The notes beneath the pieces are model-generated. The model did not search any database. It saw nothing but the letters and a program-made list of their open reading frames with translations, and was not told the DNA's origin. A stretch of DNA of 64,000 nt from Escherichia coli (lineage in GTDB: Bacteria; Pseudomonadota; Gammaproteobacteria; Enterobacterales; Enterobacteriaceae): assembly GCF_041886205.1 (NCBI RefSeq), contig NZ_CP169030.1; one strand, written 5' to 3'. Each line of letters starts with the position of its first letter. Position 1 is the stretch's first letter. Below are positions 11,626-34,999 of the stretch, piece after piece. Made by a program: the position numbers and the translations under genes.

Positions 11626-11650
11626 TGTCATTTTCAGAAGACGACTGCAC
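11626..11650. repeat. IRt (25-bp terminal inverted repeat at tni end of Tn402-like integron)
   Basis: TGTCATTTTCAGAAGACGACTGCAC. Confidence 0.8.
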
Positions 11651-11766
11651 CAGTTGATTGGGCGTAATGGCTGTTGTGCAGCCAGCTCCTGACAGTTCAA
11701 TATCAGAAGTGATCTGCACCAATCTCGACTATGCTCAATACTCGTGTGCACCAAAGCGAGGTGAGC

Positions 11767-13446: not shown

Positions 13447-13448
13447 CC

Positions 13449-15571: not shown

Positions 15572-15617
15572 CGGATAGAGCTTTCCGGCTCACACTGTCA
15601 CATAATCGAACGTATAC

Positions 15618-16256
15618 GTGACGGGTGAAAAGGTGCTGATCGGCTACATGCGGGTATCGAAGGCGGACGGATCCCAGTCCACCAATTTGCAACGCGATGC
15701 GCTCATCGCCGCTGGTGTGAGCCTTGCGCACCTTTACGAGGATCTGGCCTCGGGCAGGCGCGATGATCGCCCAGGGTTGGCTGCTTGCCTGAAGGCGCTT
15801 CGTGAAGGGGACACGCTGATCGTGTGGAAGCTCGATCGGCTTGGCCGTGATCTGCGCCACCTGATCAACACCGTGCACGACCTAACTGCGCGTAGCGTGG
15901 GCCTGAAGGTCCTGACCGGTCACGGTGCGGCGGTCGACACGACGACTGCCGCCGGCAAGCTTGTGTTCGGTATTTTTGCCGCGCTGGCCGAGTTCGAGCG
16001 TGAGTTGATTTCCGAGCGAACAGTCGCTGGACTTATCTCGGCGCGCGCTCGCGGCAGGAAAGGGGGGCGCCCCTTCAAGATGACCGCCGCCAAGCTACGC
16101 CTGGCGATGGCCAGCATGGGGCAACCGGAAACCAAGGTGGGCGATCTCTGCGAAGAACTCGGGATTACCCGGCAGACGCTCTACCGGCACGTGTCGCCCA
16201 AGGGCGAACTGCGGCCAGACGGCGTAAAGCTGCTCTCCCTCGGTTCAGCCGCATAA
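15618..16256 (+). CDS. tniR: TniR/TniC serine resolvase of Tn402-like element
   Basis: Serine recombinase motifs (IGYMRVSKADGSQ; C-terminal HTH); exact start uncertain. Confidence 0.8.
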   Translation: MTGEKVLIGYMRVSKADGSQSTNLQRDALIAAGVSLAHLYEDLASGRRDDRPGLAACLKALREGDTLIVWKLDRLGRDLRHLINTVHDLTARSVGLKVLTGHGAAVDTTTAAGKLVFGIFAALAEFERELISERTVAGLISARARGRKGGRPFKMTAAKLRLAMASMGQPETKVGDLCEELGITRQTLYRHVSPKGELRPDGVKLLSLGSAA

Positions 16257-16353
16257 ATGGAGGCGACCTGGAACGGGGCGCTGTTCAGTGCGGCAACGAT
16301 CCGATTACCGGTGTCGACCCAGAGCAGCCGTAGAGCTTTTGGGAAAGCTGTCG

Positions 16354-16448
16354 TTCAACGTTTGACGTGAGGGGCCGCCGTAGCGGCGAAGCCGCGAAGG
16401 GAACCCGCAAGCGCAGCTTGTGGGCGGTCCCTCTCGACGGAATGGTTA
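16354..16448 (-). other. Probable attC recombination site of the qac gene cassette
   Basis: Minus-strand inverse core ATCTAAC (plus 16441-16448) and core GTTGAAC (plus 16354-16360) bracket ~95 bp downstream of the qac stop; boundaries approximate. Confidence 0.4.
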
Positions 16449-16460
16449 GATGCGACCGTT

Positions 16461-16793
16461 TTAGTGAACACTTGCCTTAGATAGCAAGTTGAGCACAGCA
16501 ACGCCGCTGATAATGAAGCCGACACCAACAAATCCCCACATATCTAGTTTTTGACCATGCAAAACCCATGCAATCGCAGTGACCAAGACGATCCCGAGGC
16601 CCGACCAAACTGCGTAGGCGATTCCAACAGGAATCGATTTGAGTGTCAGCGACAGGAAATAAAAAGCAGCAGCGTATCCCGCTACGACGATAAAAGACGG
16701 TACTAACCTAGTAAAGCCCTCACTAGACTTGAGCGCAGAGGTTGCAATGACCTCAAAAATAATGGCCGTAGCCAGAAATAACCAATTTTTCAA
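16461..16793 (-). CDS. Small multidrug resistance (SMR) quaternary ammonium compound efflux protein, qacH/qacL-type gene cassette
   Basis: 110-aa frame [27 protein letters not shown]... with probable TTG start; the ORF-track entry 16461-17102 is an artefactual upstream extension through attI1. Confidence 0.75.
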
Positions 16794-16888
16794 AATATTT
16801 CTCCATGGAGTTCCGCGAAGAAATTTTAGGTTCGATTTAAGAAAAAAAACAGTCTTGTTGCTGGCCGAAATTTGTGCGCACAGCAAAG

Positions 16889-16965
16889 CATCTAACTTTG
16901 TTTTAGGGCGACTGCCCTGCTGCGTAACATCGTTGCTGCTCCATAACATCAAACATCGACCCACG
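16889..16965. other. attI1 site (copy 1) with cassette junction GTTAGATGC on minus strand
   Basis: Sequence CCCTAAAACAAAGTTAGATGC (minus strand) directly upstream of intI1; boundaries approximate. Confidence 0.6.
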
Positions 16966-17031
16966 GCGTAACGCGCTTGCTGCTTGGATGCCCGAGGCAT
17001 AGACTGTACAAAAAAACAGTCATAACAAGCC

Positions 17032-18045
17032 ATGAAAACCGCCACTGCGCCGTTACCACCGCTGCGTTCGGTCAAGGTTCTGGACCAGTTGCGTGAGCGC
17101 ATACGCTACTTGCATTACAGTTTACGAACCGAACAGGCTTATGTCCACTGGGTTCGTGCCTTCATCCGTTTCCACGGTGTGCGTCACCCGGCAACCTTGG
17201 GCAGCAGCGAAGTCGAGGCATTTCTGTCCTGGCTGGCGAACGAGCGCAAGGTTTCGGTCTCCACGCATCGTCAGGCATTGGCGGCCTTGCTGTTCTTCTA
17301 CGGCAAGGTGCTGTGCACGGATCTGCCCTGGCTTCAGGAGATCGGAAGACCTCGGCCGTCGCGGCGCTTGCCGGTGGTGCTGACCCCGGATGAAGTGGTT
17401 CGCATCCTCGGTTTTCTGGAAGGCGAGCATCGTTTGTTCGCCCAGCTTCTGTATGGAACGGGCATGCGGATCAGTGAGGGTTTGCAACTGCGGGTCAAGG
17501 ATCTGGATTTCGATCACGGCACGATCATCGTGCGGGAGGGCAAGGGCTCCAAGGATCGGGCCTTGATGTTACCCGAGAGCTTGGCACCCAGCCTGCGCGA
17601 GCAGCTGTCGCGTGCACGGGCATGGTGGCTGAAGGACCAGGCCGAGGGCCGCAGCGGCGTTGCGCTTCCCGACGCCCTTGAGCGGAAGTATCCGCGCGCC
17701 GGGCATTCCTGGCCGTGGTTCTGGGTTTTTGCGCAGCACACGCATTCGACCGATCCACGGAGCGGTGTCGTGCGTCGCCATCACATGTATGACCAGACCT
17801 TTCAGCGCGCCTTCAAACGTGCCGTAGAACAAGCAGGCATCACGAAGCCCGCCACACCGCACACCCTCCGCCACTCGTTCGCGACGGCCTTGCTCCGCAG
17901 CGGTTACGACATTCGAACCGTGCAGGATCTGCTCGGCCATTCCGACGTCTCTACGACGATGATTTACACGCATGTGCTGAAAGTTGGCGGTGCCGGAGTG
18001 CGCTCACCGCTTGATGCGCTGCCGCCCCTCACTAGTGAGAGGTAG
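17032..18045 (+). CDS. intI1: Class 1 integron integrase IntI1 (copy 1)
   Basis: 337-aa tyrosine recombinase [49 protein letters not shown]... Confidence 0.95.
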
Positions 18046-18222
18046 GGCAGCGCAAGTCAATCCTGGCGGATTCACTACCCCTGCGCGAAGGCCATCGGTG
18101 CCGCATCGAACGGCCGGTTGCGGAAAGTCCTCCCTGCGTCCGCTGATGGCCGGCAGCAGCCCGTCGTTGCCTGATGGATCCAACCCCTCCGCTGCTATAG
18201 TGCAGTCGGCTTCTGACGTTCA

Positions 18223-18247
18223 GTGCAGCCGTCTTCTGAAAACGACA
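18223..18247. repeat. IRi (25-bp inverted repeat at intI1 end), copy 1, internal
   Basis: GTGCAGCCGTCTTCTGAAAACGACA; followed by TTTGA rather than the CGCCT seen outside IRt. Confidence 0.8.
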
Positions 18248-18329
18248 TTTGAACCGGGAACCTTCCCTTTTTGGCTAGGCGTGAAACAATGGTCATTTTC
18301 CCTATACCCAAAATGACCAGGAGGCCCGC

Positions 18330-18428
18330 ATGAAAGTCGCACGCATCTACCTGCGCGTGAGCACGGAGGAACAAGACCTAAGCCGGCAGGATGCCATCGT
18401 GGAGAGCTTAAATAAGACCGTCCCGTAA
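18330..18428 (+). pseudogene. Serine recombinase (resolvase) N-terminal fragment, truncated after ~27 codons by the 88-bp repeat
   Basis: MKVARIYLRVSTEEQDLSRQDAIVES matches the catalytic-serine N-terminus of resolvases; frame then runs into repeat sequence and stops. Confidence 0.5.
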
Positions 18429-18495
18429 ATTTCAGCCGAATCCGACAAAAAGGCGTGAAGATTTCCTTTAAATAGAGAGACCGAAGGTCATCCTT
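18408..18495. repeat. 88-bp direct repeat, copy A, flanking the tet(M) segment
   Basis: TTAAATAAGACCGTCCCGTAAATTTCAGCCGAATCCGACAAAAAGGCGTGAAGATTTCCTTTAAATAGAGAGACCGAAGGTCATCCTT, identical at 20999-21086. Confidence 0.85.
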
Positions 18496-18648
18496 TTCCT
18501 AAAAAAGGGGGGGGCCATGGTTCCAAGATGTAAAATCGAGGGCTAATTCAGGCTATACTTGAACTATCCTTAATGGAATCTTTAGCCAGCGGTATCAACG
18601 AAGCAAGAAACATCGAAGACTAATTAAAAGAATCCATACATAACGGAA

Positions 18649-18693
18649 AGAGCCGATAAAATGAGATTGTATTAATCTCATTTTATCGGCTCT
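18649..18693. terminator. Long perfect hairpin (19-bp stem) at the 3' end of the small ORF downstream of tet(M)
   Basis: AGAGCCGATAAAATGAGATT-gtat-TAATCTCATTTTATCGGCTCT. Confidence 0.45.
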
Positions 18694-18850
18694 GCGTCTT
18701 TGCGTCTGGCTCTGTAATCGCAGTTACTTTGAACTGCTTTATTTCAATTAAATTTTCTTGTCTGCATTTCGGACAATAGAGGGGGAATTTTTTTAATTCA
18801 GTATCTTCCCTTATCTTTAATCGTGTTTTATTTCCACATACAGGACACAA
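18683..18850 (-). CDS. Small Cys-rich zinc-ribbon-like protein (~55 aa), Tn916 orf6-like, downstream of tet(M)
   Basis: Minus-strand frame CPVCGNKTRLKIREDTELKKFPLYCPKCRQENLIEIKQFKVTAITEPDAKTQSR with TTG/GTG start; below ORF-track length cutoff. Confidence 0.4.
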   Translation of the reverse strand: MCPVCGNKTRLKIREDTELKKFPLYCPKCRQENLIEIKQFKVTAITEPDAKTQSR

Positions 18851-18968
18851 TATCCACTTGTAGTTTATAATAACTATCTCCTCCTTTACACTTTAATTCA
18901 AATCTTTATTAAAAAATATTTCATCTTATTTAACAAGAAACCATATTTATATAACAACATAAAATACA

Positions 18969-20888
18969 CTAAGTTATTTTATTGAACATATATCGTACTT
19001 TATCTATCCGACTATTTGGACGACGGGGCTGGCAAACAGGTTCACCGGTAGTAACATGGTACCCTTTTAACTCTGTTAAACAAACACTACGTCCATTTGT
19101 AAAGAAAGTTAAATCACTACGATATTCTTGAATACACCGAGCAGGGATTTCTCCACTAAGAATGACCTCATTATTTTTCAATTGAGTGTCTACGATGTTC
19201 GCACAATATTTAGGAGCATCGTTGTATGCTCGTGAAAGATATTCCTGTGGCGCATAAATTTTAAAACTAAGATATGGCTCTAACAATTCTGTTCCAGCTT
19301 TTTTTAAGACTTGTTCCAATACAATAGGAGCAAGCATCCGAAAATCTGCTGGGGTACTAACAGGGCTATAGTATAAGCCATACTTAAAACAGATTTTACA
19401 GTCCGTCACATTCCAACCATACAATCCTTGTTCACAGCCATAGCGTATCCCTTCCATAACTGCATTTTGAAATGATTGATTTAAGTATCCAAGAGAAACC
19501 GAGCTCTCATACTGCATTCCACTTCCCAACGGAAGCGGTGATACAGATAAACCAATGGAAGCCCAGAAAGGATTTGGCGGCACTTCGATGTGAATGGTAT
19601 ATTCTGCATTTTTTAACGGTCTCTCCATATAAATGACTGTAGGCTCTTTTAGTTCTATCTCCACATGATACTTTTCTTGCAACAGTGCACTAATCACTTC
19701 CATTTGTACTTTCCCTAAGAAAGAAAGTATAATTTCATGTGTCGTAGAATCCACGTAATATCGTAGAAGCGGATCACTATCTGAGATTTCCAAAAGGGCA
19801 TCAAGCAACATTTCTCTCTGTTCAGGTTTACTCGGTTCAACAGTTGTTTGTAGTAGAGGGTGCGGATTTTCAATCTTTTTTCTCTGTGGCAATAGTTTTG
19901 TATCTCCAAGAACACTATTTAACTTCAAAAACTCATTTTGCAAAATAACAATTTCCCCGGAATAAGCCTTATCGATTTTACATAATTCACCATTTATTGA
20001 AGTATACATTTCTGTAATTTTTATTTTTTCCTTTTCCGATATTCTAACCGAATCTCGCAAATGCAGTACGCCACTATAAAGACGTATATATGCAAGACGT
20101 TGTCTTTTTTTTGTATATTCAATTTTGAAAACATTTCCGCAAAGTTCAGACTGACCTCGATGTGTTGATGAATAAAATTTATTCGTAATCACTTCTATAA
20201 GGTTATCAATCCCTATATTGTTTTTTGCACTTCCATGATAAAGAGGGAACAGAGAACAATTCTGAAATCTTATGCTTTCCTCTTGTTCGAGTTCCAATGC
20301 TTCTAATGATTTACCGGACATATATTTCTCTAAAAGGTCATCGTTTCCCTCTATTACCGTATCCCATTGTTCAGATTCGGTAAAGTTCGTCACACACATA
20401 TTAGGATACAGTTCTACCTTCTGTTTGATTACAATTTCGGCAGAAAGTTTCTCTTTAATATCCTGATAAACCGTTGATAAATCAATTCCATTTTGGTCAA
20501 TCTTATTGATAAAAAAGATTGTGGGAATCCCCATTTTCCTAAGTGCATGAAATAATATACGAGTTTGTGCTTGTACGCCATCTTTTGCAGAAATCAGTAG
20601 AATTGCCCCATCTAAAACTGATAATGAACGATATACTTCTGCTAAGAAATCCATATGTCCTGGCGTGTCTATGATGTTCACCTTCGTATTTTCCCACTGA
20701 AAAGAGGTTATTCCTGTCTGAATTGTAATTCCTCTCTGACGTTCTAAAAGCGTATTATCCGTCCTCGTTGTACCTTTGTCCACGCTTCCTAATTCTGTAA
20801 TCGCTCCACTGTTATATAATAAGCTTTCTGTTAAGGTAGTTTTTCCCGCATCAACATGAGCTAAAACTCCAATATTAATAATTTTCAT
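18969..20888 (-). CDS. tet(M): Tetracycline resistance ribosomal protection protein Tet(M)
   Basis: 639 aa starting [30 protein letters not shown] (translational GTPase motifs); the ORF-track frame begins 5 codons upstream. Confidence 0.95.
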
Positions 20889-20903
20889 GTGATTTTCCTC
20901 CAT

Positions 20904-20990
20904 TCAAAAGCCCAAAAGGGCATAAAAATCCCAGTGATAAATACTCTTATCACTGGGATTTTTATGCATAACCATAGGCATACAAAGCAT
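20904..20990 (-). CDS. tet(M) leader peptide (28 aa) of the transcriptional attenuator
   Basis: MLCMPMVMHKNPSDKSIYHWDFYALLGF immediately upstream of tet(M), as in Tn916. Confidence 0.7.
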   Translation of the reverse strand: MLCMPMVMHKNPSDKSIYHWDFYALLGF

Positions 20991-20998
20991 ACAGATAT

Positions 20999-21086
20999 TT
21001 AAATAAGACCGTCCCGTAAATTTCAGCCGAATCCGACAAAAAGGCGTGAAGATTTCCTTTAAATAGAGAGACCGAAGGTCATCCTT
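20999..21086. repeat. 88-bp direct repeat, copy B, flanking the tet(M) segment
   Basis: Identical to 18408-18495, same orientation. Confidence 0.85.
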
Positions 21087-21134
21087 GAAGAAGGAGTCCT
21101 CGGTGAGATTCAGAATGCCGAACACCGTCACCCT
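21087..21134 (-). pseudogene. sul1: sul1 5' fragment (codons ~2-17 only), joined on one side to the 88-bp repeat and on the other to truncated attI1
   Basis: Minus strand reads (V)TVFGILNLTEDSFF, the N-terminus of Sul1 dihydropteroate synthase, lacking its ATG and everything after codon ~17. Confidence 0.7.
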
Positions 21135-21200
21135 GCTGCGTAACATCGTTGCTGCTCCATAACATCAAACATCGACCCACGGCGTAACGCGCTTGCTGCT
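21133..21200. other. attI1 (copy 2), truncated: lacks the GTTAGATGC crossover end
   Basis: Sequence identical to copy 1 from CCCTGCTGCGTAACATCG onward, but the cassette-proximal ~25 bp are replaced by the sul1 fragment. Confidence 0.6.
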
Positions 21201-21247
21201 TGGATGCCCGAGGCATAGACTGTACAAAAAAACAGTCATAACAAGCC

Positions 21248-22261
21248 ATGAAAACCGCCACTGCGCCGTTACCACCGCTGCGTTCGGTCAAGGTTCTGGA
21301 CCAGTTGCGTGAGCGCATACGCTACTTGCATTACAGCTTACGAACCGAACAGGCTTATGTCCACTGGGTTCGTGCCTTCATCCGTTTCCACGGTGTGCGT
21401 CACCCGGCAACCTTGGGCAGCAGCGAAGTCGAGGCATTTCTGTCCTGGCTGGCGAACGAGCGCAAGGTTTCGGTCTCCACGCATCGTCAGGCATTGGCGG
21501 CCTTGCTGTTCTTCTACGGCAAGGTGCTGTGCACGGATCTGCCCTGGCTTCAGGAGATCGGAAGACCTCGGCCGTCGCGGCGCTTGCCGGTGGTGCTGAC
21601 CCCGGATGAAGTGGTTCGCATCCTCGGTTTTCTGGAAGGCGAGCATCGTTTGTTCGCCCAGCTTCTGTATGGAACGGGCATGCGGATCAGTGAGGGTTTG
21701 CAACTGCGGGTCAAGGATCTGGATTTCGATCACGGCACGATCATCGTGCGGGAGGGCAAGGGCTCCAAGGATCGGGCCTTGATGTTACCCGAGAGCTTGG
21801 CACCCAGCCTGCGCGAGCAGCTGTCGCGTGCACGGGCATGGTGGCTGAAGGACCAGGCCGAGGGCCGCAGCGGCGTTGCGCTTCCCGACGCCCTTGAGCG
21901 GAAGTATCCGCGCGCCGGGCATTCCTGGCCGTGGTTCTGGGTTTTTGCGCAGCACACGCATTCGACCGATCCACGGAGCGGTGTCGTGCGTCGCCATCAC
22001 ATGTATGACCAGACCTTTCAGCGCGCCTTCAAACGTGCCGTAGAACAAGCAGGCATCACGAAGCCCGCCACACCGCACACCCTCCGCCACTCGTTCGCGA
22101 CGGCCTTGCTCCGCAGCGGTTACGACATTCGAACCGTGCAGGATCTGCTCGGCCATTCCGACGTCTCTACGACGATGATTTACACGCATGTGCTGAAAGT
22201 TGGCGGTGCCGGAGTGCGCTCACCGCTTGATGCGCTGCCGCCCCTCACTAGTGAGAGGTAG
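21248..22261 (+). CDS. intI1: Class 1 integron integrase IntI1 (copy 2, identical protein)
   Basis: Identical 337-aa translation to copy 1; one silent nucleotide difference noted. Confidence 0.95.
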
Positions 22262-22438
22262 GGCAGCGCAAGTCAATCCTGGCGGATTCACTACCCCTGC
22301 GCGAAGGCCATCGGTGCCGCATCGAACGGCCGGTTGCGGAAAGTCCTCCCTGCGTCCGCTGATGGCCGGCAGCAGCCCGTCGTTGCCTGATGGATCCAAC
22401 CCCTCCGCTGCTATAGTGCAGTCGGCTTCTGACGTTCA

Positions 22439-22463
22439 GTGCAGCCGTCTTCTGAAAACGACA
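22439..22463. repeat. IRi, copy 2 (outer end of integron), followed by CGCCT target duplication
   Basis: GTGCAGCCGTCTTCTGAAAACGACA then CGCCT at 22464-22468. Confidence 0.8.
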
Positions 22464-22485
22464 CGCCTTCAACCAAGGAGACATC

Positions 22486-23046
22486 GTGCAGGGGCACCGC
22501 ATCGGCTACGTCCGGGTCAGCAGCTTTGACCAGAACCCGGAACGCCAGCTGGAACAAACCCAGGTGAGCAAGGTGTTCACCGACAAGGCATCGGGCAAGG
22601 ACACCCAGCGCCCCCAGCTCGAAGCGCTGCTGAGCTTCGTCCGCGAAGGCGATACAGTGGTGGTGCACAGCATGGATCGGCTGGCCCGCAACCTCGATGA
22701 CCTGCGTCGCTTGGTACAGAAGCTGACTCAGCGCGGCGTGCGCATCGAGTTCCTGAAGGAGGGCCTGGTGTTCACTGGCGAGGACTCGCCGATGGCCAAC
22801 CTGATGCTGTCGGTGATGGGGGCCTTCGCTGAGTTCGAGCGCGCCCTGATCCGCGAGCGGCAGCGTGAGGGCATCGCCTTGGCCAAGCAGCGTGGCGCGT
22901 ACCGGGGCCGCAAGAAAGCCCTGTCCGATGAGCAGGCTGCTACCCTGCGGCAGCGAGCGACGGCCGGCGAGCCCAAGGCGCAGCTTGCCCGCGAGTTCAA
23001 CATCAGCCGGGAAACCCTCTACCAGTACCTCCGCACGGACGACTGA
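22486..23046 (+). CDS. tnpR: TnpR resolvase (Tn21/Tn1721 subfamily)
   Basis: 186-aa serine recombinase MQGHRIGYVRVSSFDQNPERQ... Confidence 0.9.
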   Translation: MQGHRIGYVRVSSFDQNPERQLEQTQVSKVFTDKASGKDTQRPQLEALLSFVREGDTVVVHSMDRLARNLDDLRRLVQKLTQRGVRIEFLKEGLVFTGEDSPMANLMLSVMGAFAEFERALIRERQREGIALAKQRGAYRGRKKALSDEQAATLRQRATAGEPKAQLAREFNISRETLYQYLRTDD

Positions 23047-23049
23047 CAC

Positions 23050-26016
23050 ATGCCGCGTCGCTTGATCCTCTCGGCCACGGAGCGGGACACCCTGCTTGCG
23101 CTGCCGGAAAGCCAGGATGACCTGATCCGCTACTACACCTTCAACGACTCCGACCTGTCGCTGATCCGCCAGCGACGCGGCGACGCCAACCGCCTCGGCT
23201 TCGCCGTGCAGCTCTGCCTGCTGCGCTACCCCGGTTACGCGCTGGGAACCGACAGCGAGCTGCCCGAGCCGGTCATCCTGTGGGTGGCGAAGCAAGTCCA
23301 GGCCGAGCCGGCGAGCTGGGCAAAGTACGGCGAGCGCGACGTGACCCGTCGCGAGCATGCCCAGGAACTGCGCACCTACCTGCAACTGGCCCCGTTCGGC
23401 CTGTCCGACTTCCGCGCCCTGGTGCGCGAGCTAACCGAGCTGGCCCAGCAGACCGACAAAGGCTTGCTGCTGGCCGGTCAGGCCCTGGAGAGCCTACGGC
23501 AGAAACGACGCATCCTGCCGGCGCTGAGCGTGATTGACCGGGCCTGCTCGGAAGCCATTGCGCGAGCCAATCGGCGGGTCTACCGCGCCCTGGTCGAACC
23601 ACTCACGGACTCGCATCGGGCCAAGCTGGACGAGCTGTTGAAGCTCAAGGCCGGCAGCAGCATCACCTGGTTGACCTGGCTGCGCCAGGCACCGCTGAAA
23701 CCCAACTCTCGGCACATGCTGGAACACATCGAGCGGCTGAAGACATTTCAGTTGGTGGACTTGCCCGAAGGCCTGGGCCGGCACATCCACCAGAACCGCC
23801 TGCTCAAGCTGGCCCGCGAGGGTGGGCAGATGACGCCCAAAGACCTCGGTAAGTTCGAGCCGCAGCGCCGCTACGCGACCCTGGCCGCCGTGGTGCTGGA
23901 GAGCACCGCGACCGTGATCGATGAGCTGGTCGATCTGCATGACCGCATCCTGGTCAAGCTGTTCAGCGGCGCGAAGCACAAGCATCAGCAGCAGTTCCAG
24001 AAGCAGGGCAAGGCGATCAACGACAAGGTGCGCCTGTACTCCAGGATCGGCCAGGCGCTGCTGGAAGCGAAGGAAAGCGGCAGCGACCCCTATGCCGCCA
24101 TCGAGGCGGTGATTCCCTGGGACGAGTTCACCGAGAGCGTCAGCGAGGCCGAGCTGCTGGCCCGGCCGGAAGGCTTCGACCACCTGCACCTGGTCGGCGA
24201 GAACTTCGCCACCCTGCGCCGTTACACGCCGGCCTTGCTGGAGGTGCTGGAACTGCGCGCCGCGCCGGCCGCGCAAGGCGTGCTGGCAGCCGTGCAGACC
24301 CTGCGTGAGATGAACGCCGACAACCTGCGCAAGGTGCCGGCCGATGCACCCACGGCCTTCATCAAGCCGCGCTGGAAGCCGCTGGTGATCACCCCGGAAG
24401 GCCTCGACCGGAAATTCTACGAAATCTGCGCCCTGTCCGAGCTGAAGAACGCCCTGCGCTCCGGCGACATCTGGGTCAAGGGCTCGCGGCAGTTCCGCGA
24501 CTTCGACGACTACCTGCTGCCGGCCGAGAAGTTCGCCGCACTCAAGCGCGAGCAGGCCCTGCCCCTGGCGATCAACCCGAACAGCGACCAGTACCTGGAA
24601 GAGCGTTTGCAGCTGCTGGACGAGCAGTTGGCCACCGTCACCCGCCTGGCCAAGGACAACGAGCTGCCCGATGCCATCCTCACCGAGTCAGGGCTGAAAA
24701 TCACCCCGCTGGATGCGGCGGTGCCGGATCGGGCGCAGGCGCTGATCGACCAAACCAGCCAGTTACTGCCGCGCATCAAGATCACCGAACTGCTGATGGA
24801 CGTGGACGACTGGACGGGCTTCAGCCGCCACTTCACCCACTTGAAGGACGGGGCCGAGGCCAAAGACAGGACGTTGCTGCTGTCCGCAATCCTCGGTGAT
24901 GCGATCAACCTCGGGCTGACCAAGATGGCCGAGTCGAGCCCCGGCCTGACCTACGCCAAGCTGTCCTGGCTGCAAGCCTGGCACATCCGCGACGAAACCT
25001 ATTCGGCGGCCTTGGCCGAGCTGGTCAACCACCAGTATCGCCACGCCTTTGCCGCCCACTGGGGCGACGGCACGACCTCATCCTCCGATGGCCAGCGCTT
25101 CCGCGCGGGTGGCCGGGGCGAGAGCACCGGGCACGTCAACCCGAAGTACGGTAGCGAGCCGGGACGGCTGTTCTATACCCATATCTCCGACCAGTACGCG
25201 CCGTTCAGCACCCGCGTGGTGAATGTCGGCGTCCGCGATTCCACCTATGTGCTCGACGGCCTGCTGTACCACGAGTCCGACCTGCGGATCGAGGAGCACT
25301 ACACCGACACGGCCGGCTTCACCGATCACGTCTTTGCCCTGATGCACCTGCTAGGCTTCCGCTTCGCGCCGCGCATCCGCGACCTCGGCGAAACCAAGCT
25401 GTACGTGCCGCAGGGCGTGCAAGCCTACCCGACGTTGCGCCCGCTGATCGGCGGCACCCTGAACATCAAGCACGTGCGTGCCCACTGGGACGACATCCTG
25501 CGCCTGGCCAGCTCGATCAAGCAGGGCACCGTCACCGCCTCGCTGATGCTGCGCAAGCTCGGCAGCTACCCGCGCCAGAACGGACTGGCCGTGGCCCTGC
25601 GCGAGCTGGGCCGGATCGAGCGCACGCTGTTCATCCTGGACTGGCTGCAAAGTGTTGAACTGCGCCGCCGCGTGCATGCCGGCCTGAACAAAGGTGAGGC
25701 GCGCAACTCGCTGGCCAGGGCGGTGTTCTTCAACCGCCTTGGGGAAATCAGGGATCGGAGCTTCGAGCAGCAGCGCTACCGGGCCAGCGGCCTCAACCTG
25801 GTGACGGCGGCTATCGTGCTGTGGAACACGGTGTACCTGGAACGCGCCACCCAGGGGTTGGTCGAGGCCGGCAAGCCGGTGGACGGCGAGCTGCTGCAAT
25901 TCCTGTCGCCGCTGGGCTGGGAGCACATCAACCTAACCGGCGATTACGTCTGGCGGCAGAGCCGCAGACTGGAAGACGGGAAGTTTCGGCCCTTACGGAT
26001 GCCCGGAAAACCTTAG
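23050..26016 (+). CDS. tnpA: TnpA transposase (Tn3 family, Tn21/Tn1721 subfamily)
   Basis: 988-aa ORF ending inside the terminal inverted repeat. Confidence 0.9.
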
Positions 26017-26049
26017 CGTACGATTTTTTCCGAATTCTGCGGGCTCCCC
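26012..26049. repeat. Right 38-bp terminal inverted repeat of the Tn1721-like transposon
   Basis: Reverse complement reads GGGGAGCCCGCAGAATTCGGAAAAAATCGTACGCTAAG. Confidence 0.8.
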
Positions 26050-26190
26050 TTGTTTGTACGATTCGATATCGATACTGCGTAATGGCCGGTACTTCCCTGT
26101 ACCCAGCTTAAGATTATTACGCCAGACATCATCCCCATTAAGATTGATATGCTCCCAGCCCAACGGCGAAAGGTGAGTGCAGTTGGTCAT
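26050..26190 (-). pseudogene. 3' remnant of a second Tn3-family tnpA, inverted and abutting the outer end of the transposon IR
   Basis: Minus-strand translation [31 protein letters not shown] parallels the TnpA C-terminus [31 protein letters not shown]. Confidence 0.5.
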
Positions 26191-26319
26191 TAATCGGGAG
26201 CTTTTTTCGTTTCAGGGACTCAATGGCTCTTTCTATGTATACCGTGTTCCATAATTTTTCACTCCGTTGAAAACGGAGTACGTGGCAATCGTATCAGTGA
26301 TACAGTTGAGGCAATTGAC

Positions 26320-26520
26320 ACGAATACCCTTTCCGGTATTGATGGCATCAGTTGAAGAGCATGTTATTCTCTTGAGCTATTTGTGCCACACAGGCGCGGG
26401 GGGCGTTTTTTACCACGGGGACTTCGGGCATAAAAACAAGGGGCCGCAAACACGGCCCTTAATTCAGATCTAACCGGGTACGCTATCTGTTGCCCTGGAA
26501 AATTGATCTGACAACTCAGT
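26320..26520. mobile_element. Rearranged IS66-family remnant
   Basis: 26330-26430 resembles the region around 34460-34640 of the intact IS66-family copy; 26466-26513 resembles, in opposite orientation, 32307-32350. Confidence 0.45.
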
Positions 26521-26567
26521 AAAGATCAATACGGTTCTGACGAGCAGCTTACCTGCCTGTTTGCGTT

Positions 26568-27863
26568 TCAGAGCTTATTCTCTGCTGTCTGATAGCCACG
26601 GCTGAGACGAACAAACAGCATTGCCGTTGCGGCGAGTCCGCATAGCGCCGCGCACATGAGCCACCACCCCGGAGAACTCTTATCGCCGGTCAACTGGACC
26701 AATGCGGTGGAGATAGCAGGCGTCAGGCCGCCGAAAATCGCAGTCGCAAGACTAAAGGCCAGCGAAAAACCCACGGTTCGGACATAAACCGGCATCACTT
26801 CGGTCAGGGCCGCCACCATCGCACCGTTATACATGCCAAAAAAGAACGAGAACCAGAGCAGCACCAACGTCATGCGGGTGAAGTCAGGGGCAGCGGTAAG
26901 CCAGTTCATCACCGGCCAGGTGGTGACGAGGGCGAGCAAGGTGATGCCCATCAGCACCGGGCGTCGCCCGATCCGATCAGAGATAGCGCCGCCAATCGGC
27001 AGCCAGATGAAGTTAGAAATCCCTACCAGCATGGTGACAACCAGGCTGTCACGTGCGCTCAGGTTCAACACCGTTCTCCCGTAAGTGGGGGTATAGACAG
27101 TAATAAAATAAAAGGTCGTGGTCGTCATCGCTACCAGCAGGGTACCCGCGGTGATGATGCGCCAGTTTTTAGCAATGGTGGTAAAAATTTCCCGGGTGTC
27201 CGGACGGTGTTTACGTTGTAAAAAGGCTTCAGTTTCCTGTAGCGAACGTCGAAGAACAAAAATCAGCGGAATAATCATGCAGCCAATGAAGAACGGGATT
27301 CGCCAACCCCATTCGGAGATTTCATCGTGTCCCAGCGTGACATTCAGACCGTAGCCGATCAGCGCGGCGACGACAATCGCCACCTGCTGGCTGGCCGATT
27401 GCCAACTGGTGTAAAAGCCTTTATTGCCTGGTGTAGCGATCTCAGAAAGATAAACAGAGACGCCGCCCAGTTCGACGCCAGCAGAAAATCCCTGTAGCAG
27501 ACGCCCCACCAGGACCAGCACGGGAGCCAGCAGGCCGATAGTCTGATAACCCGGCACGAGGGCGATGAGCAGCGTGCCGCAGCCCATAATCGCCAGGGTG
27601 ACCATCAGCCCTTTCCGTCGGCCGATTCTGTCGATATATGCGCCCAACACCACGGCCCCGATAGGGCGCATTAAAAATCCGGAGCCAAAAACGGCAAAAG
27701 TAAGCATTAATGCGGCAAACTCACTTTCGGCAGGAAAAAACGTCTTTGCGATATAAGTGGCGTAAAAACCAAACAGGAAAAAATCGAACTGTTCGAGAAA
27801 ATTACCGCTGGTCACACGCAGTATTGCGCCGAACGTGCCAGCGCGCGATGGTTGTTGAGTCAT
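26568..27863 (-). CDS. tcuC: TcuC-like MFS transporter (tricarballylate/citrate uptake)
   Basis: 431-aa 12-TM MFS protein immediately downstream of tcuB. Confidence 0.7.
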
Positions 27864-27917
27864 TGAAGTTGCTCCACTGTCTTATCAGAATTATGTATAG
27901 AGGTAAGAGTTTGCGGG

Positions 27918-29057
27918 TTAGTCGCCTGAGACCCCCGCCTGTTTTCCACGTCGCTTCTCAATCGCCCATTTGAGTAAAGACGCGCAGCGGTAAAATCCGT
28001 GGGCAAATTTTCCGTATGGAATGGTCAAAAAAAGCGCCATGACCACGCCAAGATGGATGGCAAGCAGGATCCCCATCCATGAGGTGTCTCTTCCCGCCAG
28101 CAAACCTATACCGGTCAGGCTGGTCAGGAGCAGCAGTAAAATAAAACCGCGATCCATCGGTTTCTGTCGCGCGTCGCCATGCAGTGGCGAGCGCTTAAGG
28201 TTTAACCACAGCAGGCCTGCCGGGCCGACAATTAAACCGATTCCTCCGAGCGTGCCAAGCATGACCGGCACGCTGAAGAACGGGTAGGGGGCTTCCCAAC
28301 CGGCGAAGTAGTGGTAACCCGTCGCCACCACGGTCGCGGCGAAACAGAGCATAAAGCCGTAGAAGGTGAAATGGTGGAAACGACGACGCATCAATGTGAA
28401 AGCATCGTCCGCCTCGTTGCAGCCTTTGCCATGACCGCCGTCGAGGTATTTCAGCGTCAGCGCGTTGTGCGACGCTTCGGCAATTTCCGCCGGACGCGGC
28501 CCGACGTGAGAGATCTCGCGCCAGAAGCGGATCACCCCTGCCATTAGTAAACCGATCGCCAGCATGAAAACCGATCCAAACATCCATGCCAGCAGGTTGT
28601 GCGGGAAGATTTGGTAGAAATCACCGGCCAGCGGCGGATGGAGTAGCGATCCCTTCATCCCCATCGCGAGGAGTAAAAAGAGGATCAGACTAAAGACCAG
28701 TGCCAGCGTCACGGTGACGCCAGCCTGGCGATACAGCGCCCCGAAGGCCGCCGGTTGCGCGTAGTGTTGATACGTTTCCAGACGCACTTCCGCCATTGCT
28801 TTCGGCACGTTAATCGCAAACTCATGGGGTGGAGCATACTGGCAGGCGTGCAGGCAGGCGCCGCAGTTATGGCACAGGTTTGCCAGATAGTTAATGTCGG
28901 CTTTGCCAAATTCCAGTCGCTGAGTCATCGCCGGGAACACGGCGCAAAACCCTTCGCAATAGCGACAGGCATTACACACCTGCATCACCCGCTCGACTTC
29001 AGCTTCTGGCTCGGTGAGAATTTTGGCCTCGATGATCAGTTTTTCAAGCTGCTTCAT
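27918..29057 (-). CDS. tcuB: TcuB membrane iron-sulfur protein
   Basis: N-terminal [11 protein letters not shown] and [11 protein letters not shown] cysteine clusters followed by TM segments; probable start MKQLEKL, ORF-track frame extends 27 codons upstream. Confidence 0.75.
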
Positions 29058-30447
29058 GATGCGCCTCCTTACGTGCTGCCTGCGCGGCTTCTTTACCTGC
29101 GATGCGACCAAACGTGGTGCCGATGGACATGCCGACACCGGCGGTATAGCCCTTGCCCAGTACGTTGCCAGCCATCATCTCACCGGCAACGAACAGGTTA
29201 CGGCTGGGGGTGCCTGCGAAGTGAACCGCAGCGTGTTCATTCACTTTCAGTCCCAGGTAGGTAAAGGTGATCCCCGGTCGCAGGGCATAACCGTAGTAAG
29301 GGGGCGTATTAATAGGCCGCGCCCAGTGCGTTTTCGGTGGCGTCAGGCCCTGAGTCGCGCAGTTATCCAGCTTCGTGTGATCAAACTGACCCGGCTGACA
29401 GGCCTGATTGTAGTGCTCCACGGTATGGGTAAAGCGTTCGGGATCCAGCCCCAACTGGCGGGCCAGTTCACTCAGCGTATTGGCCTGTGCGCCGGGGAAA
29501 ACCGGCGGCATAAAGTGACCGATCGCTTTGCTGTCGATAATGGAGTAGCCAATCTGCCCCGGCTGTTGGGCAACCAGACGCCCCCAGATGGCATAGCGTT
29601 TCGGCCAGAAATCTTCGCCTTCATCGTAAAAGCGCTCCGCGTCCCGGTTGACTACCACACCCAGTGAGACGCAATCCACGCGGGTACAAATGCCGCCGTC
29701 GTACAACGGAGCCCGGGCATCAATCGCCACACAGTGGGACTGAGACGGATCGCCGATAATGTCAGCACCGGCATCGATCATAAACTTGAGCAAGACGCCC
29801 TGATTAAAGCGGGTGCCGCGAATGAGGAAGTTATCGGCTGGCCATTCGCCACGAGCGTTCTCTCCCCAGGCGTCGCGCAGCCATTCGCGGTTGGATTCAA
29901 ATCCACCGGCGGCGAGTACGCAGGCTTTCGCCTCAATGCGCTCGTGGCCTGCCAGGGCTGCGATGAATTCGCCGTTGTGCAATTCAAGTGCCTGTACCGG
30001 CGTGTTGTAGCGAATCTGTACCCCCAGCTTTTCTGCGCTGCGGTAATAGGCGTTCACGAGGGCTTTACCGCCGCCCATGAAGAAGGCATTGGTACGCGCC
30101 ACGTGCAGCGCGCCAGAGAGCGGAGGCTGAAAATTAACGCCGTGATGACGCATCCAGTCGCGACACTGGGAAGAGGTCCGGATCACCAGTCGCGCCAACG
30201 CTTCATTGGTATTGCCTTCGGTGACACGCCAGAGATCCTGCCAGAACTCCTCTTCGGGATAACTCTCGACCAGCACATCCTGTGGCGCATCGTGCATACA
30301 GCGTAAATTGCGCGTGTGTTGGGAATTCCCGCCGCGCCATTCCCGGGGCGCAGCCTCTAACAGCAGCACGGAAGCTCCTGCCTCACGGGCGGTTAAGGCG
30401 GCACATAACGCGGCATTACCACCGCCAATCACCAGTACATCAACCAT
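29044..30447 (-). CDS. tcuA: TcuA FAD-dependent tricarballylate dehydrogenase
   Basis: 467 aa, N-terminal dinucleotide-binding motif [17 protein letters not shown]. Confidence 0.8.
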
Positions 30448-30543
30448 CGTCTACTCCATTACCATTTAACTATTTGTTAAATTTGTAATTGAAATGTATA
30501 CGTATGATTGTATGGGCGCTATAACGAATAGCTAAAGATGGGT

Positions 30544-31470
30544 TTAGGGAGCGTAAAGGGTTGCGCCCGGCCAATGACCGGTTTCAACGAGTTCACGCAT
30601 GACTTTTGTGAGTATTACGCGGACTGCAAGACCGGCAGGGGTGAGTTCATCGTCCGACAGACTGACCAGAAAATTGGGGCGGCTGAGGACAGGATTATGG
30701 ACGCCGATCACTCTTAGCGCTTCCCTCTCAAGATGCGAAATGGCTGCACCGGGTTGCAGCGTGGCGCCGAGTCCGCTGCTAACGGCGCGCATCAGTAACG
30801 TCAGGCCGTCAATTTCCGTGGCAATATCGACCTTCAGTCCGTGTTCCTGACAGATGGCTTCCAGTCTGCCACGCAGGCCGTGTCCCTGGCTTGGCATGAT
30901 CAGGGGAATATTCGCCAGTTGAGCAGGCGTTATGGTGTCATCCGGAATATCCGCCAGCAGCTCGTGTGTGCCAATCAGAAACAGGCGCTCCTCAAGAACC
31001 GGTCTGGCGTTCCAGCGCAGGATTTTCTCTTTTTGAAACACGACCGCCAGATCAATCTGGCGCGTGTTGATCATCCGTTCCAGATTACCCGACAGGCTTT
31101 CCACCACATGCAGGCGAACGTCGGCGTAATGTTCCCGCATGGCATGAATAAACGGTATTCCCAGGATGGAGGCGGTGCTGGGGGCCATGCCGACGCTGAC
31201 GTGTCCAGAGAGACGCGCCTCGCGAGAGGCCAAGATCGCATCATCGGCGTGGCGTAGCGCCAATTGTGCCTGCGAGTAAAAAGCCAGACCGGCGTTAGTG
31301 GGCGTGACGCCGCGCGAGGTTCGTTGCAACAGACGAATGGAGAGTTCATTCTCCAGCCTCGTCATCTGTTGACTAAGTGCTGAGACACCGATACCGAGAT
31401 CAAGCGCCGCAATGCCCATACTACCGGTTTCCACAATACGAACAAAATAACGTAGCTGGCGAAGTTCCAT
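30544..31470 (-). CDS. tcuR: LysR-family transcriptional regulator (TcuR-like)
   Basis: 308 aa, N-terminal LysR HTH MELRQLRYFVRIVETGSMGIAALDLGIGVSALSQQMTRLE. Confidence 0.7.
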   Translation of the reverse strand: MELRQLRYFVRIVETGSMGIAALDLGIGVSALSQQMTRLENELSIRLLQRTSRGVTPTNAGLAFYSQAQLALRHADDAILASREARLSGHVSVGMAPSTASILGIPFIHAMREHYADVRLHVVESLSGNLERMINTRQIDLAVVFQKEKILRWNARPVLEERLFLIGTHELLADIPDDTITPAQLANIPLIMPSQGHGLRGRLEAICQEHGLKVDIATEIDGLTLLMRAVSSGLGATLQPGAAISHLEREALRVIGVHNPVLSRPNFLVSLSDDELTPAGLAVRVILTKVMRELVETGHWPGATLYAP

Positions 31471-31650
31471 TGCGATTCTCCGGAGAAGGCTGGGATATTT
31501 ACATTAAATCAACATGCTGTCAGAAGAAAGCACTAAGTAGAGAATGGCGCGCATAACAAAACAACCGACAGGTTGACTTTTCAGAATAGGGGCAGTTTGG
31601 TGATCGTCACCAGTATATGCAGCGTCAGCTGCATGGAAGGCGGCACGCTG

Positions 31651-31707
31651 TGGTTACATGTGATACCGGAGTAAAACCGCCGAAGCCCGGCGTAAGCCGG
31701 TACGGAT
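31651..31707. repeat. Copy 2 of the ~55-bp imperfect direct repeat
   Basis: GGTTACATGTGATACCGGAGTAAAACCGCCGAAGCCCGGCGTAAGCCGGTACGG, compare 9466-9520. Confidence 0.5.
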
Positions 31708-32254
31708 TGACAGATTTCACCTTACCCATCCCTTGCCCTGCCAGACCATACCTGCTTTCAGCCATGACAGAGCTTTTGTGCGCGGTCGGAGTGGTCCCGA
31801 CGAGGGTTTACCCGAAGTCGGGGCGTATCTCCGCGTTAGCGGGCCATCAGGGCCGCTTACGAGCGTGTACTCAATACTTCCAGCGAGAAGACTGACAGCG
31901 ATGAAGATGTAGTTACAACATTCATAATTAAAAGCGACTCTGTTCCGGCCCTTTGGGCCGGGGCGGGGCCGCTTTTCAGTTATGAGGGTGGGGCTTTGTG
32001 GTTTCGGTTCTGCGCTGGACCGGGGTTTTTCTTGGTGGTTCTGTTTGTGTGTTGTAACTAAAGTGGCTCCGGTCGGGGCCCGCCGCTTGCGGTGGGAGGT
32101 GCATATCTGTCTGTCCACAGGACAGGCAGTGAATAGGTTTTCTTTTTAAATGAATGTAATTAAGTAGTTTAAAGGAGATATAAACAGGTGTTTAAAAGAT
32201 ACATTGCACCCTGTAAGGCTGGCGGCTGGCGCTTTATGACATGAACGGTTGTAA

Positions 32255-32262
32255 CCTTATGA
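32255..32262. repeat. 8-bp target-site duplication (CCTTATGA), left copy, of the IS66-family insertion
   Basis: Same octamer at 34963-34970. Confidence 0.6.
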
Positions 32263-32293
32263 AGTAAGCGACTCGTCAGAACCGTATTGATAT

Positions 32294-33865
32294 TTACTGA
32301 GAGCTCAGATCAACTTTCCAGGGCAACAGATCGCGTACCCGGTTTGCCGGCCAGTCCTGGATATGTTCAATGACGTAACGCAGCCACTTTTCTGGCTCCA
32401 CATTGTTCAGACGGCATGTGCCGATCAGCGAGTACAACACCGCCGCATGTTCACCACCGCTGTCGGAACCCGCGAACATCCAGTTTTTCCGGCCTACGGC
32501 CACTCCCCGTAAGGCGTTCTCTGCGATGTTGTTGTCGATTTCCACCCAGCCATTACTGCAGTACACGTTCAGTGCATCCCACTGTTTCAGCAGGTATGCG
32601 AACGCTTTTGCCGTATCTGAGTGACGCGACAGTGTTTTCATCTGTTGCTGTATCCAGTCATACAGTGACTGCATCAGTGGCGCGGCTCTGGCTTTTCTTG
32701 CCGCCAGACGCTGTTCTGCTGAACAGCCCCGGACCTCTGCCTCGATGGCATACAGTTCACCGATACGCTGCAGGGCTTCCGTGGTGATGTAGGTGGACGC
32801 TCTTGCATGCACATCGTGGATTTTTCTCCGGGCATGAGCCATACACGCGGCTTCCGTTATTCTGCCGGATTCGTATAACGCCCGGTAACCACCGTAAGCA
32901 TCGGCCTGAAGCACACCGCTGTAACCGGCCAGGTGATTTTGTGGATGGATACCTTTCCGGTCCGGACTGTACGCGAACCAGACCGCCGGGGGCATCTGTG
33001 AACCGGCGTTACGGTCATCACGGACGTAGACCCACAGCCGGGCTGTCCGGGTTTTACCGCTGCCCGGCTCCTGGACCGGGACGGGGATATCATCAGCATG
33101 GACTTTACCGGGCATCAGCACATACTGGCGCAGGACGTCATACAGCGGCTCCAGCAGTTCAGCAACAGCACCTGTCCAGCGCCCCAGTGTGGCACGGCTC
33201 AGCTCCACTCCCTGACGACGGTATATTTCTGACTGGCGGTATAACGGCAGATGGTCTGCATATTTCCCGGTGACAACATGGGCCAGAAGCCCCGCTCCGG
33301 CATAACTGCGTGCAATGGGTTTTGAAGGTACTGGTGCCTGCACGATATGGTCGCACCGGCAACAGGCCTGTTTCGGACGTTGTGTTTCGATAACCTTAAA
33401 GGCGCTGCTGATAAGCTCCAGTTGCTCTGACACATCACATCCCAGAGAACTGAGTTCACCACCACAGGCAGGACAGCATTCCTCTTCCGGCCGGATAACC
33501 CGGGTTTCACGGGGAAGTGAGGCCGGTAACGGTTTACGGGCTGAAGACTGGCGCAGGGCGGATGGCAGTACCGGGTCATATTGCTCACCCAGCGTTTCCG
33601 CCATTTCTTCCTGAAGTGCGCTGATTCGCTCCTGTGCTTCCTGTATCTGCCGTTCGGTTTTTGCACGAAGTTTTTCTGAGCTTTTACCGAACTGCATACG
33701 TTGCAGTTTCGCAACCAGCGCCTTCAGCCGGTTGATTTCGGAAGCATAAGCCGCCACCCGCTGTGAGAGCAGGCGGTTGTATTCAGCCATCTGGCGGATG
33801 GTGTCCTGTTGCGTCTGCAACAGTGCCCGCAGGCGGGCGTTCTCATGAGCAAGTGAGGTGTCCAT
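32294..33865 (-). CDS. tnpC: IS66-family transposase TnpC
   Basis: 523 aa with N-terminal leucine zipper, CxxC zinc-finger (CPACGGEL ... CRCDH) and DDE region. Confidence 0.85.
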
Positions 33866-33884
33866 ATCCTCACTTTACAACGGG

Positions 33885-34232
33885 TTATATGCGGATTCCA
33901 GCGCGTTCCGTTCGTTTCGGGTGCTTCCAGTTGATACCTTCAAGAAGCATGGATAACTGAGCCGGAGTAAGGTGCACCTTGCCGTCACGGGTGACTGGCC
34001 AGACGAAGCGGCCCCGCTCCAGGCGTTTGGTGAAGAGGCACAGTCCGTCACTGTCAGCCCACAACACTTTTATCTGGTCACCCCGGCGTCCGCGGAAGAT
34101 GAACAGGTGTCCGGAGAACGGGTCATCCTTCAGGACGTTCTGAACTTTTGATGCCAGGCCGTTAAAGCCATTTCGCATATCGGTGATACCTGCAACCAGC
34201 CAGATACGCGAACCTGCAGGGAGAGATATCAT
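33885..34232 (-). CDS. tnpB: IS66-family accessory protein TnpB (Orf2)
   Basis: 115 aa typical IS66 Orf2. Confidence 0.8.
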   Translation of the reverse strand: MISLPAGSRIWLVAGITDMRNGFNGLASKVQNVLKDDPFSGHLFIFRGRRGDQIKVLWADSDGLCLFTKRLERGRFVWPVTRDGKVHLTPAQLSMLLEGINWKHPKRTERAGIRI

Positions 34233-34879
34233 CAGTGGCTGCTCCCTTTTATTTCGCGGATAAGTGTCTGTAATAACGCCGGCGTCAGTTTACCTTTAAG
34301 CCTGAGAGTTCCGGCCGGCAGAACCAGCTCACAACACAGACTGTCGGACGGTGTATTTATCTGCTCTGGTTCCTGTGCGGGGGCCGGGATTTTATTATCC
34401 GGCTCCGGCGTTAACGTCACGGGAAGCAGTGCCGGCATATTTTTTCCGGAAGGCAGCAGGCCACCTTTCCGGTATTGATGGCGCCAGTTGAAGAGCAGGT
34501 TATCGTTGATTCCGTTTTCCCGGGCGATCTGCGCCACACAGGCTCCGGGCTGCAGTGACTGCTCCACTAAGGCGATTTTAAACTCATAAGGGAAGTTGGG
34601 CCGCCGGGGACGTTTTTTTACCACGGGGGCTTCGGATATAACGGTGCTTTCAGGACGTACGACTGGTACCGTGGAAAATTGTCCGTAAAGGCAGGCATCA
34701 AGTTCCTGCTCCGACATGCCTGCGGGCAAAGGCCACGAAAGGCCAGCTCTCCGAAAGCGCACGAACATACTACAAACTGTTGATTTTGGTACACCCAGGC
34801 GACGCCCGGCCACAACCCGGGGTAAATGTTCTTCAAAGTGAAGACGTAAAGCTTCAGTGATCCAGGTCCGGTGTTTCAT
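34232..34879 (-). CDS. tnpA: IS66-family accessory protein TnpA (Orf1, HTH)
   Basis: Frame 34232-34909; probable start at MKHRTWITEALRLHFE. Confidence 0.7.
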   Translation of the reverse strand: MKHRTWITEALRLHFEEHLPRVVAGRRLGVPKSTVCSMFVRFRRAGLSWPLPAGMSEQELDACLYGQFSTVPVVRPESTVISEAPVVKKRPRRPNFPYEFKIALVEQSLQPGACVAQIARENGINDNLLFNWRHQYRKGGLLPSGKNMPALLPVTLTPEPDNKIPAPAQEPEQINTPSDSLCCELVLPAGTLRLKGKLTPALLQTLIREIKGSSH

Positions 34880-34962
34880 ACGATAGTGTCCATTAAAAAT
34901 GATGGACATTATTTTTGTAGAGCCGGAGGAAACAGACCAGACGGTTTAAATGAGCCGGTTAC

Positions 34963-34970
34963 CCTTATGA
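34963..34970. repeat. 8-bp target-site duplication (CCTTATGA), right copy
   Basis: Matches 32255-32262. Confidence 0.6.
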
Positions 34971-34990
34971 GGAAGTCCCTTGCAGTTAAA

Positions 34991-34999
34991 TGTGGATAA
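34991..34999. promoter_or_regulatory. DnaA box (TTATCCACA on minus strand) of the IncFII-type origin region downstream of repA1
   Basis: Consensus 9-mer about 175 bp downstream of the repA1 stop. Confidence 0.5.

Follow-up and report, generated by a model that had tools for sequence, protein, structure and literature searches.

The window analysed here is a stretch of 64,000 nucleotides from an Escherichia coli contig (NZ_CP169030.1, assembly GCF_041886205.1). It carries a plasmid-borne tricarballylate (tcu) operon whose genes all lie on the minus strand (26568–31470): tcuC (26568–27863), tcuB (27918–29138 in the list of open reading frames, 27918–29057 in the shorter PGAP call made for identical plasmids), tcuA (29044–30447) and tcuR (30544–31470). 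Gene names follow the PGAP annotation of plasmids that are 99.7–99.8% identical. Directly downstream of the operon lies a scar (26328–26552) made of two short pieces of IS66-family sequence, segment A (26328–26433, minus strand) and segment B (26472–26552, plus strand), separated by a 38-nt spacer (26434–26471, minus strand). The left context of the scar (26050–26327, minus strand) comprises a frameshifted 3′ fragment of a Tn3-family tnpA (26050–26254, minus strand, PGAP), the final 20 nt of a FAD-binding oxidoreductase gene (26251–26270, minus strand) and a stretch (26271–26327) for which no match was found beyond the same context. This tnpA fragment belongs to another element than the adjoining Tn1721/TnAs1-like transposon, of which the transposase gene (23050–26016) and a 38-bp terminal repeat (26012–26049) are found further left. 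On the tcuR side, IncF backbone begins at 31603; an intact ISCro1 element (32263–34962, minus strand) and the stop codon of the IncFII repA gene (35175) follow. In the one full RefSeq record examined, neither fragment of the scar is annotated; the sole feature marked by PGAP at this place is the neighbouring pseudogene (equivalent of 26041–26254), labelled 'Tn3 family transposase, frameshifted, incomplete'.

The region 26000–26600 was compared with the whole window by BLAST. Segment B (26472–26552) matches 32344–32264, at the right end of the intact ISCro1, in inverted orientation with 90.1% identity over 81 nt (E = 1e-26). Its first part (26472–26522) corresponds to the final 16 codons of tnpC followed by the stop codon (NRVRYLLPWKIDLTTQ) and shares with ISCro1 the TnpC C-terminus NRVR-LLPWK-DL--Q, while positions ~26523–26552 form a terminal inverted repeat. 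Terminal inverted repeats of the IS66 family begin with 5′-GTAAGC(G). The outer terminus of segment B, which ends in GCTTAC at 26552 and points toward tcuC, has this GTAAGC in agreement with the ISCro1 end GTAAGCG, and the whole repeat has the same architecture in both (GTAAGC...AACCGTATTGAT). Read from the outside inward, the terminus is GTAAGCTGCTCGTCAGAACCGTATTGATC in segment B and GTAAGCGACTCGTCAGAACCGTATTGATA in ISCro1, with three mismatches in the terminal 34 nt. The remnant possesses such a repeat at this end only. The best database matches to segment B are IS66 right-end stubs on Shigella pINV plasmids (92.6–92.7% over 81–82 nt), and PLSDB yielded no closer full-length relative of the remnant, the best hits there being fragments at 92.6% (the Shigella stubs) and ~90% (ISCro1).

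Segment A is a decayed internal fragment of an IS66-family tnpA, corresponding to residues ~90–149 of ISCro1 TnpA in the helix-turn-helix region (the Pfam domain HTH_Tnp_1 spans residues 102–159). It aligns directly with ISCro1 at 34464–34641 in three collinear blocks of 93, 74 and 81% identity. Two of them were detected by BLAST (26328–26367 with 34464–34503, 92.5%, E = 6e-11; 26395–26433 with 34602–34641, 85%, E = 5e-6), and the middle one was added by a repeat search (26367–26401 with 34515–34549, 35 nt, 74%). The minus-strand translation, PEVPVVKNAP..RACVAQIAQEN..NMLFN*CHQYRKG, aligns with ISCro1 TnpA, with deletions of 12 and 60 nt and an in-frame TGA in place of a Trp codon of ISCro1. 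Counted from the left end of the intact element, the matching region occupies nt 322–499, where tnpA encodes HTH_Tnp_1.

These alignments bear out the sequence-only reading, which had described a rearranged IS66-family remnant with one segment direct and the other inverted relative to an intact copy, and they support a common origin. The view that the segments come from different ends of the element holds for segment B, which is a right end, and fails for segment A, which is internal. Similarity is indeed present in the interval first proposed (26320–26520); its right limit, however, drops 32 nt of segment B that form the terminal repeat, and the true extent is 26328–26552. That the resemblance could be due to chance or low complexity, with no shared ancestry with the IS66 family, can for practical purposes be dismissed: although the middle block of segment A reaches only 74% and its alignment takes two gaps, the E-values within the window (1e-26 and 6e-11) are far beyond chance, the three blocks are collinear with the tnpA frame preserved, segment B stops exactly at an IS terminus and encodes a TnpC C-terminus, and PLSDB contains thousands of IS66-family copies that match these intervals.

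Of a length that is 2700 bp in ISCro1, only 187 nt are left in the scar. TnpC is reduced to its final 16 codons and the DDE_Tnp_IS66 catalytic domain is gone, so the remnant, as a fragment, descends from an IS66-family member but is not a functional one. As for the accessory genes, tnpA is represented by ~35 codons with two deletions and a stop, and a BLAST search of ISCro1 against the whole window found no similarity to tnpB outside the intact copy and no fragment of the element other than those in the scar. No left inverted repeat was found in 26191–26472, where local alignment of IS66 ends scored the same as with shuffled sequence; a MITE-like IS66 derivative, for which both terminal repeats are required, was rejected on this ground. 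The 8 nt adjoining the sole surviving terminus (ACAGGCAG; ACGGGCGG in the native sequence) have no second copy close by. As the remnant encodes nothing and has no second end, it cannot transpose. Compared with ISCro1, in which the same tnpA and tnpC regions are found, the scar is thus diverged (~90% in segment B, 74–93% in segment A), it has no tnpB, catalytic domain, left inverted repeat or target duplication, and its two pieces are mutually inverted. The strand of segment A is opposite to that expected from a simple internal deletion of the element to which segment B belonged, and a simple deletion is therefore not enough to produce the two pieces. Two oppositely oriented IS copies explain this layout equally well as one rearranged copy.

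The intact element shows what has been lost. It contains tnpA (34232–34909), tnpB (33885–34232) and tnpC (32294–33865), encodes the Pfam domains HTH_Tnp_1, TnpB_IS66, DDE_Tnp_IS66, zf-IS66, LZ_Tnp_IS66 and DDE_Tnp_IS66_C, has the terminal repeats of the family and matches annotated ISCro1 copies in many plasmids at 100% identity over 2700 nt. The original description of ISCro1 is from Citrobacter rodentium. The element is bracketed at 32255–32262 and 34963–34970 by a perfect duplication of 8 bp, CCTTATGA, which was read directly, so that the limits 32263–34962 given for it earlier are exact. Duplications of 8 bp are the size reported for IS66 (PMC6778807). Because this duplication is perfect, the intact ISCro1 is a separate, recent insertion, later than and independent of the scar. 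The junction of ISCro1 in this window is absent from PLSDB as a single piece, and in at least 27 other plasmids an identically oriented ISCro1 is located 48 nt from this site. Relative to IncFII repA, the insertion is 204 nt beyond the stop codon (35175), and a perfect DnaA box, TGTGGATAA, is found at 34990–34998, 20–28 nt from the element. Going by the layout of R1/R100, this site would be in or beside the oriR region; the FII origin may therefore be disrupted by ISCro1.

The remnant, 5.7 kb from the intact ISCro1, had been interpreted as a second, decayed copy of this IS, able together with ISCro1 to invert the tcu block (through the 81-nt repeat) or to delete it (through the direct tnpA repeat). 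The term second copy is misleading: with pieces only ~90% identical to ISCro1, the remnant derives from a related, different element, and other plasmids carry the same pieces with no ISCro1 at that site. The tie between the two is a family resemblance only. Rearrangement of tcu by this pair is also very improbable. The repeats are real and oriented as described, and full-length IS66 copies do recombine homologously, with 270 kb deleted from the Agrobacterium plasmid pAt15955 (PMC6778807). The scar and ISCro1 likewise place IS66-family repeats on one replicon; however, the Agrobacterium copies are full-length and essentially identical, whereas the scar shares only 81 and 106 nt with ISCro1, at no more than 90% identity, and uninterrupted identity extends over at most 20 nt (inverted) and 19 nt (direct). 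Efficient RecA-dependent recombination in E. coli requires a minimum of ~23–27 bp, and at 10% divergence exchange is further held down by mismatch repair. Since the perfect matches fall below this minimum, recombination between the scar and ISCro1 is expected to be very inefficient, and exchange could occur as a rare event. A transposase-dependent route meets a geometrical obstacle, because the right termini of the stub and of ISCro1 face each other across tcu, leaving the operon outside both ends. Moreover, the remnant predates the ISCro1 insertion, and in each of the 14 PLSDB records that contain the stub the match also takes in 6 nt of the spacer on its left, with no hybrid junction indicative of inversion; neither a longer IS at tcuC nor any product of recombination between the scar and ISCro1 was found among these 14 records. 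To predict instability of the tcu block from the pairing of the remnant with ISCro1 is therefore unwarranted.

The position of segment B is more informative with respect to the operon itself. When one genome per species was searched for relatives of TcuC, the hits were chromosomal loci, the closest being that of Citrobacter amalonaticus (TcuC 99% identical, DNA 92%), followed by other Citrobacter, Raoultella and Klebsiella tcu loci at 80–83%. Homology to chromosomal tcu starts at 26553–26555, immediately after the IS terminus, and extends to 31586. In the native chromosomes (Citrobacter, Raoultella, Klebsiella) the tcuC stop codon TGA is followed by AACGCAAAC and then by a terminator hairpin, GGGCGGAG...CTCCGCCC. 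In the window, TGA and AACGCAAAC are followed by AGGCAG, and the IS terminus GTAAGCTGCTCG comes directly thereafter, giving the junction pattern AACGCAAACAGGCAG followed by GTAAGC. What is left of the native tcuC 3′ flank (26553–26567, minus strand) thus amounts to 9 nt and a further 6 nt, AGGCAG, from the left arm of the terminator, and the IS end falls within this arm, so that the hairpin is cut; to judge from this junction, the native tcuC terminator would have been destroyed at capture. Because the IS terminus abuts Citrobacter-type DNA within the tcuC terminator stem, the stub marks one edge of a captured 5.0-kb block found on a group of IncF plasmids and consisting of tcuC-tcuB-tcuA-tcuR with its native flanks (26553–31586, minus strand). 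We therefore consider it probable, at roughly 0.8, that 26328–26552 holds two dead, non-contiguous pieces of an IS66-family element that is related to ISCro1 yet distinct from it (~90–93%), with segment B marking the edge of tcu.

The other edge of the block is different. Homology to tcu passes through the terminator hairpin upstream of tcuR and ends around 31586, and IncF backbone homology resumes at 31603, 16 nt past this end. In the tcu-free plasmid pH1519-76 the same backbone (yacAB, repeat element, oriR, repA) is uninterrupted and devoid of cargo. No IS end was found at the right edge (31586–31603), which is a plain junction. Capture of chromosomal operons between IS copies is a general pattern, and here too the transition from chromosomal to plasmid DNA coincides exactly with an IS terminus, which cuts the native terminator. 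In contrast to this pattern, only one edge carries an IS end. A composite, IS-flanked transposon carrying tcu was considered and is not demonstrable: the outer end of the left stub faces the cargo, the absence of an IS end at the right edge leaves such an origin unsupported, and ISCro1, further to the right, inserted later and has a duplication of its own.

The spacer between the two segments matches neither ISCro1 nor any compared locus beyond the same context. A terminator scan detected in it, on the tcuC strand (26458–26441), a hairpin of the form GGGCCG-N6-CGGCCC followed by CTTGTTTTTA, with a predicted folding energy of −16.4 kcal/mol (z = −2.4). No promoter was found in 26000–26700, and an Rfam search at a permissive E-value returned one chance-level snoRNA match (18.5 bits against a gathering score of 50). 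The hairpin could have been co-opted to terminate the tcuC transcript and form its 3′ end in place of the native terminator, the scar being retained for that reason. This would be consistent with the loss of the native terminator, with the presence of a G+C-rich hairpin and T-run on the appropriate strand 110 nt past the tcuC stop codon, and with the 100% identity of 26251–26451 between lineages whose tcu genes differ by 8%. We nevertheless regard such a co-option as distinctly unlikely. About 0.8 sites of this kind are expected by chance in the 700-nt stretch scanned, and the z-score is only −2.4. A recombination breakpoint accounts more simply for the high identity, and selection was rejected in its favour as the cause of the 100% conservation of the scar. 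Among close plasmids the scar varies as much as tcu (99.0–99.4% against 99.7%), metagenome contig L091 has no hairpin and still has tcuC, and in many plasmids Tn2 appears to be inserted at 26436/26437 beside the hairpin, with everything beyond gone.

The latter plasmids are resistance plasmids of E. coli and Klebsiella, in which homology stops at 26436 and blaTEM-1 is found within ~150 nt. This looks like a Tn2-type insertion in the spacer with loss of segment B and tcu, judged from blaTEM-1 by itself. Segment A is accordingly widespread without segment B.

The complete arrangement, from segment A through the spacer and segment B to tcuC, was found in at least 14 PLSDB plasmids, in 18 complete E. 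coli genomes and in one metagenome contig, the two pieces being 99–100% identical in those plasmids and that contig. The junction pattern had no match in 100,044 species genomes and two in metagenomes, one contig showing the same arrangement and the other a further truncated one. An intact IS at the tcuC junction was likewise not found in the 100,044 species genomes, and the metagenomes gave only rearranged versions. Four contexts (L003, L004, L005 and L092) could be read across the position that ISCro1 occupies in the window, as far as the replicon or the point where tcu homology ends, and none has ISCro1 there. As the scar occurs in contexts with no ISCro1 at this position and the ISCro1 junction of the window is absent from PLSDB, the scar is old, and ISCro1 recent and unrelated to it. 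Three different left contexts were observed: the Tn3-family remnant of the window, a complete oxidoreductase gene in p417H-90 and pZ1323HEC0399-2 (with which homology starts at 26251), and a truncated stub in contig L091, where ~25 nt of it remain beside an IS21-like fragment. What these contexts have in common is solely the junction of the IS end with tcuC.

Between the window and p417H-90, 26251–26451 is 100% identical, 26452–26576 contains three to four differences, and the tcu genes are ~92% identical. A sharp drop in identity is visible between L005 (5784–10244) and the window (26251–30723), homology with p417H-90 ending inside tcuR at 30723. Since two lineages share an identical derived junction and have tcu genes ~8% apart, the simplest reading of these comparisons is a single capture, after which the tcu allele would have been replaced by homologous recombination with another Citrobacter-type tcu locus. 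This replacement is a further assumption that the best explanation needs. Scar variation being no less than that of tcu among close plasmids, a special constraint on the scar is not indicated.

The surroundings of the scar form a mosaic. The Tn1721/TnAs1-like transposon to its left is 16.5 kb long (9567–26049), with 38-bp inverted repeats at 9567–9604 and 26012–26049 and no 5-bp target duplication. At its insertion point ~210 bp of the pMB3176_2 backbone (L003, 8783–8992) are missing, including the terminal repeat of the older Tn3-family remnant; this points either to insertion with an adjacent deletion or to recombination between transposons. Inside the transposon there are a 1333-bp direct repeat of 99.9% identity (16915–18247 and 21131–22463), which is probably the duplicated intI1 annotated on either side of tet(M) in JML285_P2, and an 88-nt repeat was found at 18408–18495 and 20999–21086. 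IS4321 is an IS110-family element that targets the 38-bp repeats of Tn21-type transposons. In p2017-02-2CC_1 (L008, 1279–2283) it directly adjoins the truncated Tn3-family remnant near the scar. A diverged pair of IncF backbone elements (82–83% over ~240 nt), located at 9440–9566 (continuing in L003, 8668–8905) and at 31617–31869 and carrying the hairpins GGTTACATGT...GCCCGGCGTAAGCCGGTAC..., brackets the whole cargo island with the Tn3 remnant, the IS66 scar and tcu. The tcu-free plasmid pH1519-76 (L090) has one match to this element in the stretch compared. Two bracketing copies against this one match suggest that the island arose from the joining of two F-type backbones.

Solo IS66 right-end stubs recur on F-type plasmids. 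Those of the Shigella pINV/F-type plasmids (for example beside ccdAB in NZ_CP026099.1) resemble segment B in being short stubs on F-type backbones. They differ from it in that the Shigella stub is 127 nt long, is 97% identical to ISCro1, flanks ccdAB and ipaH9.8, and is associated neither with tcu nor with an inverted tnpA piece. On S. flexneri pINV (L089, 3155–3281) the 127-nt stub beside ccdAB is annotated as a 35-aa 'transposase domain-containing protein'. The literature yielded nothing on plasmid-borne tcu associated with IS66. The scar is an ordinary mobile-element scar.

The most likely history of the locus is as follows; both the order of events and the part played by the IS in capture are inferred, the latter from its position only. 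An IS66-family element may have inserted into the tcuC terminator of a Citrobacter-like chromosome, or a cointegrate may have formed there, after which the neighbouring operon would have moved to an F-type plasmid together with the IS. Later, deletion and inversion, or else the overlap of the IS with another copy in opposite orientation, would have destroyed the element and left the 81-nt end and the 106-nt tnpA piece. The flanks would then have been reshaped by a Tn3-family element, by the Tn1721-like transposon of 16.5 kb and, in no plasmid but this one, by the insertion of a fresh ISCro1 between tcuR and the IncFII replicon. A more specific proposal is that the IS66 right end is the footprint of a one-ended mobilisation of the complete Citrobacter tcuRABC operon to IncF plasmids, the stub and the hairpin having served since then as the working 3′ end of the tcuC transcript; its support is positional only, and we consider it unlikely.

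Annotation of the two fragments would delimit the tcu cargo (26553–31586) on IncF plasmids and would also point to a Citrobacter-like donor. The locus provides a small example of a metabolic operon carried on E. coli plasmids with an IS end at its junction.
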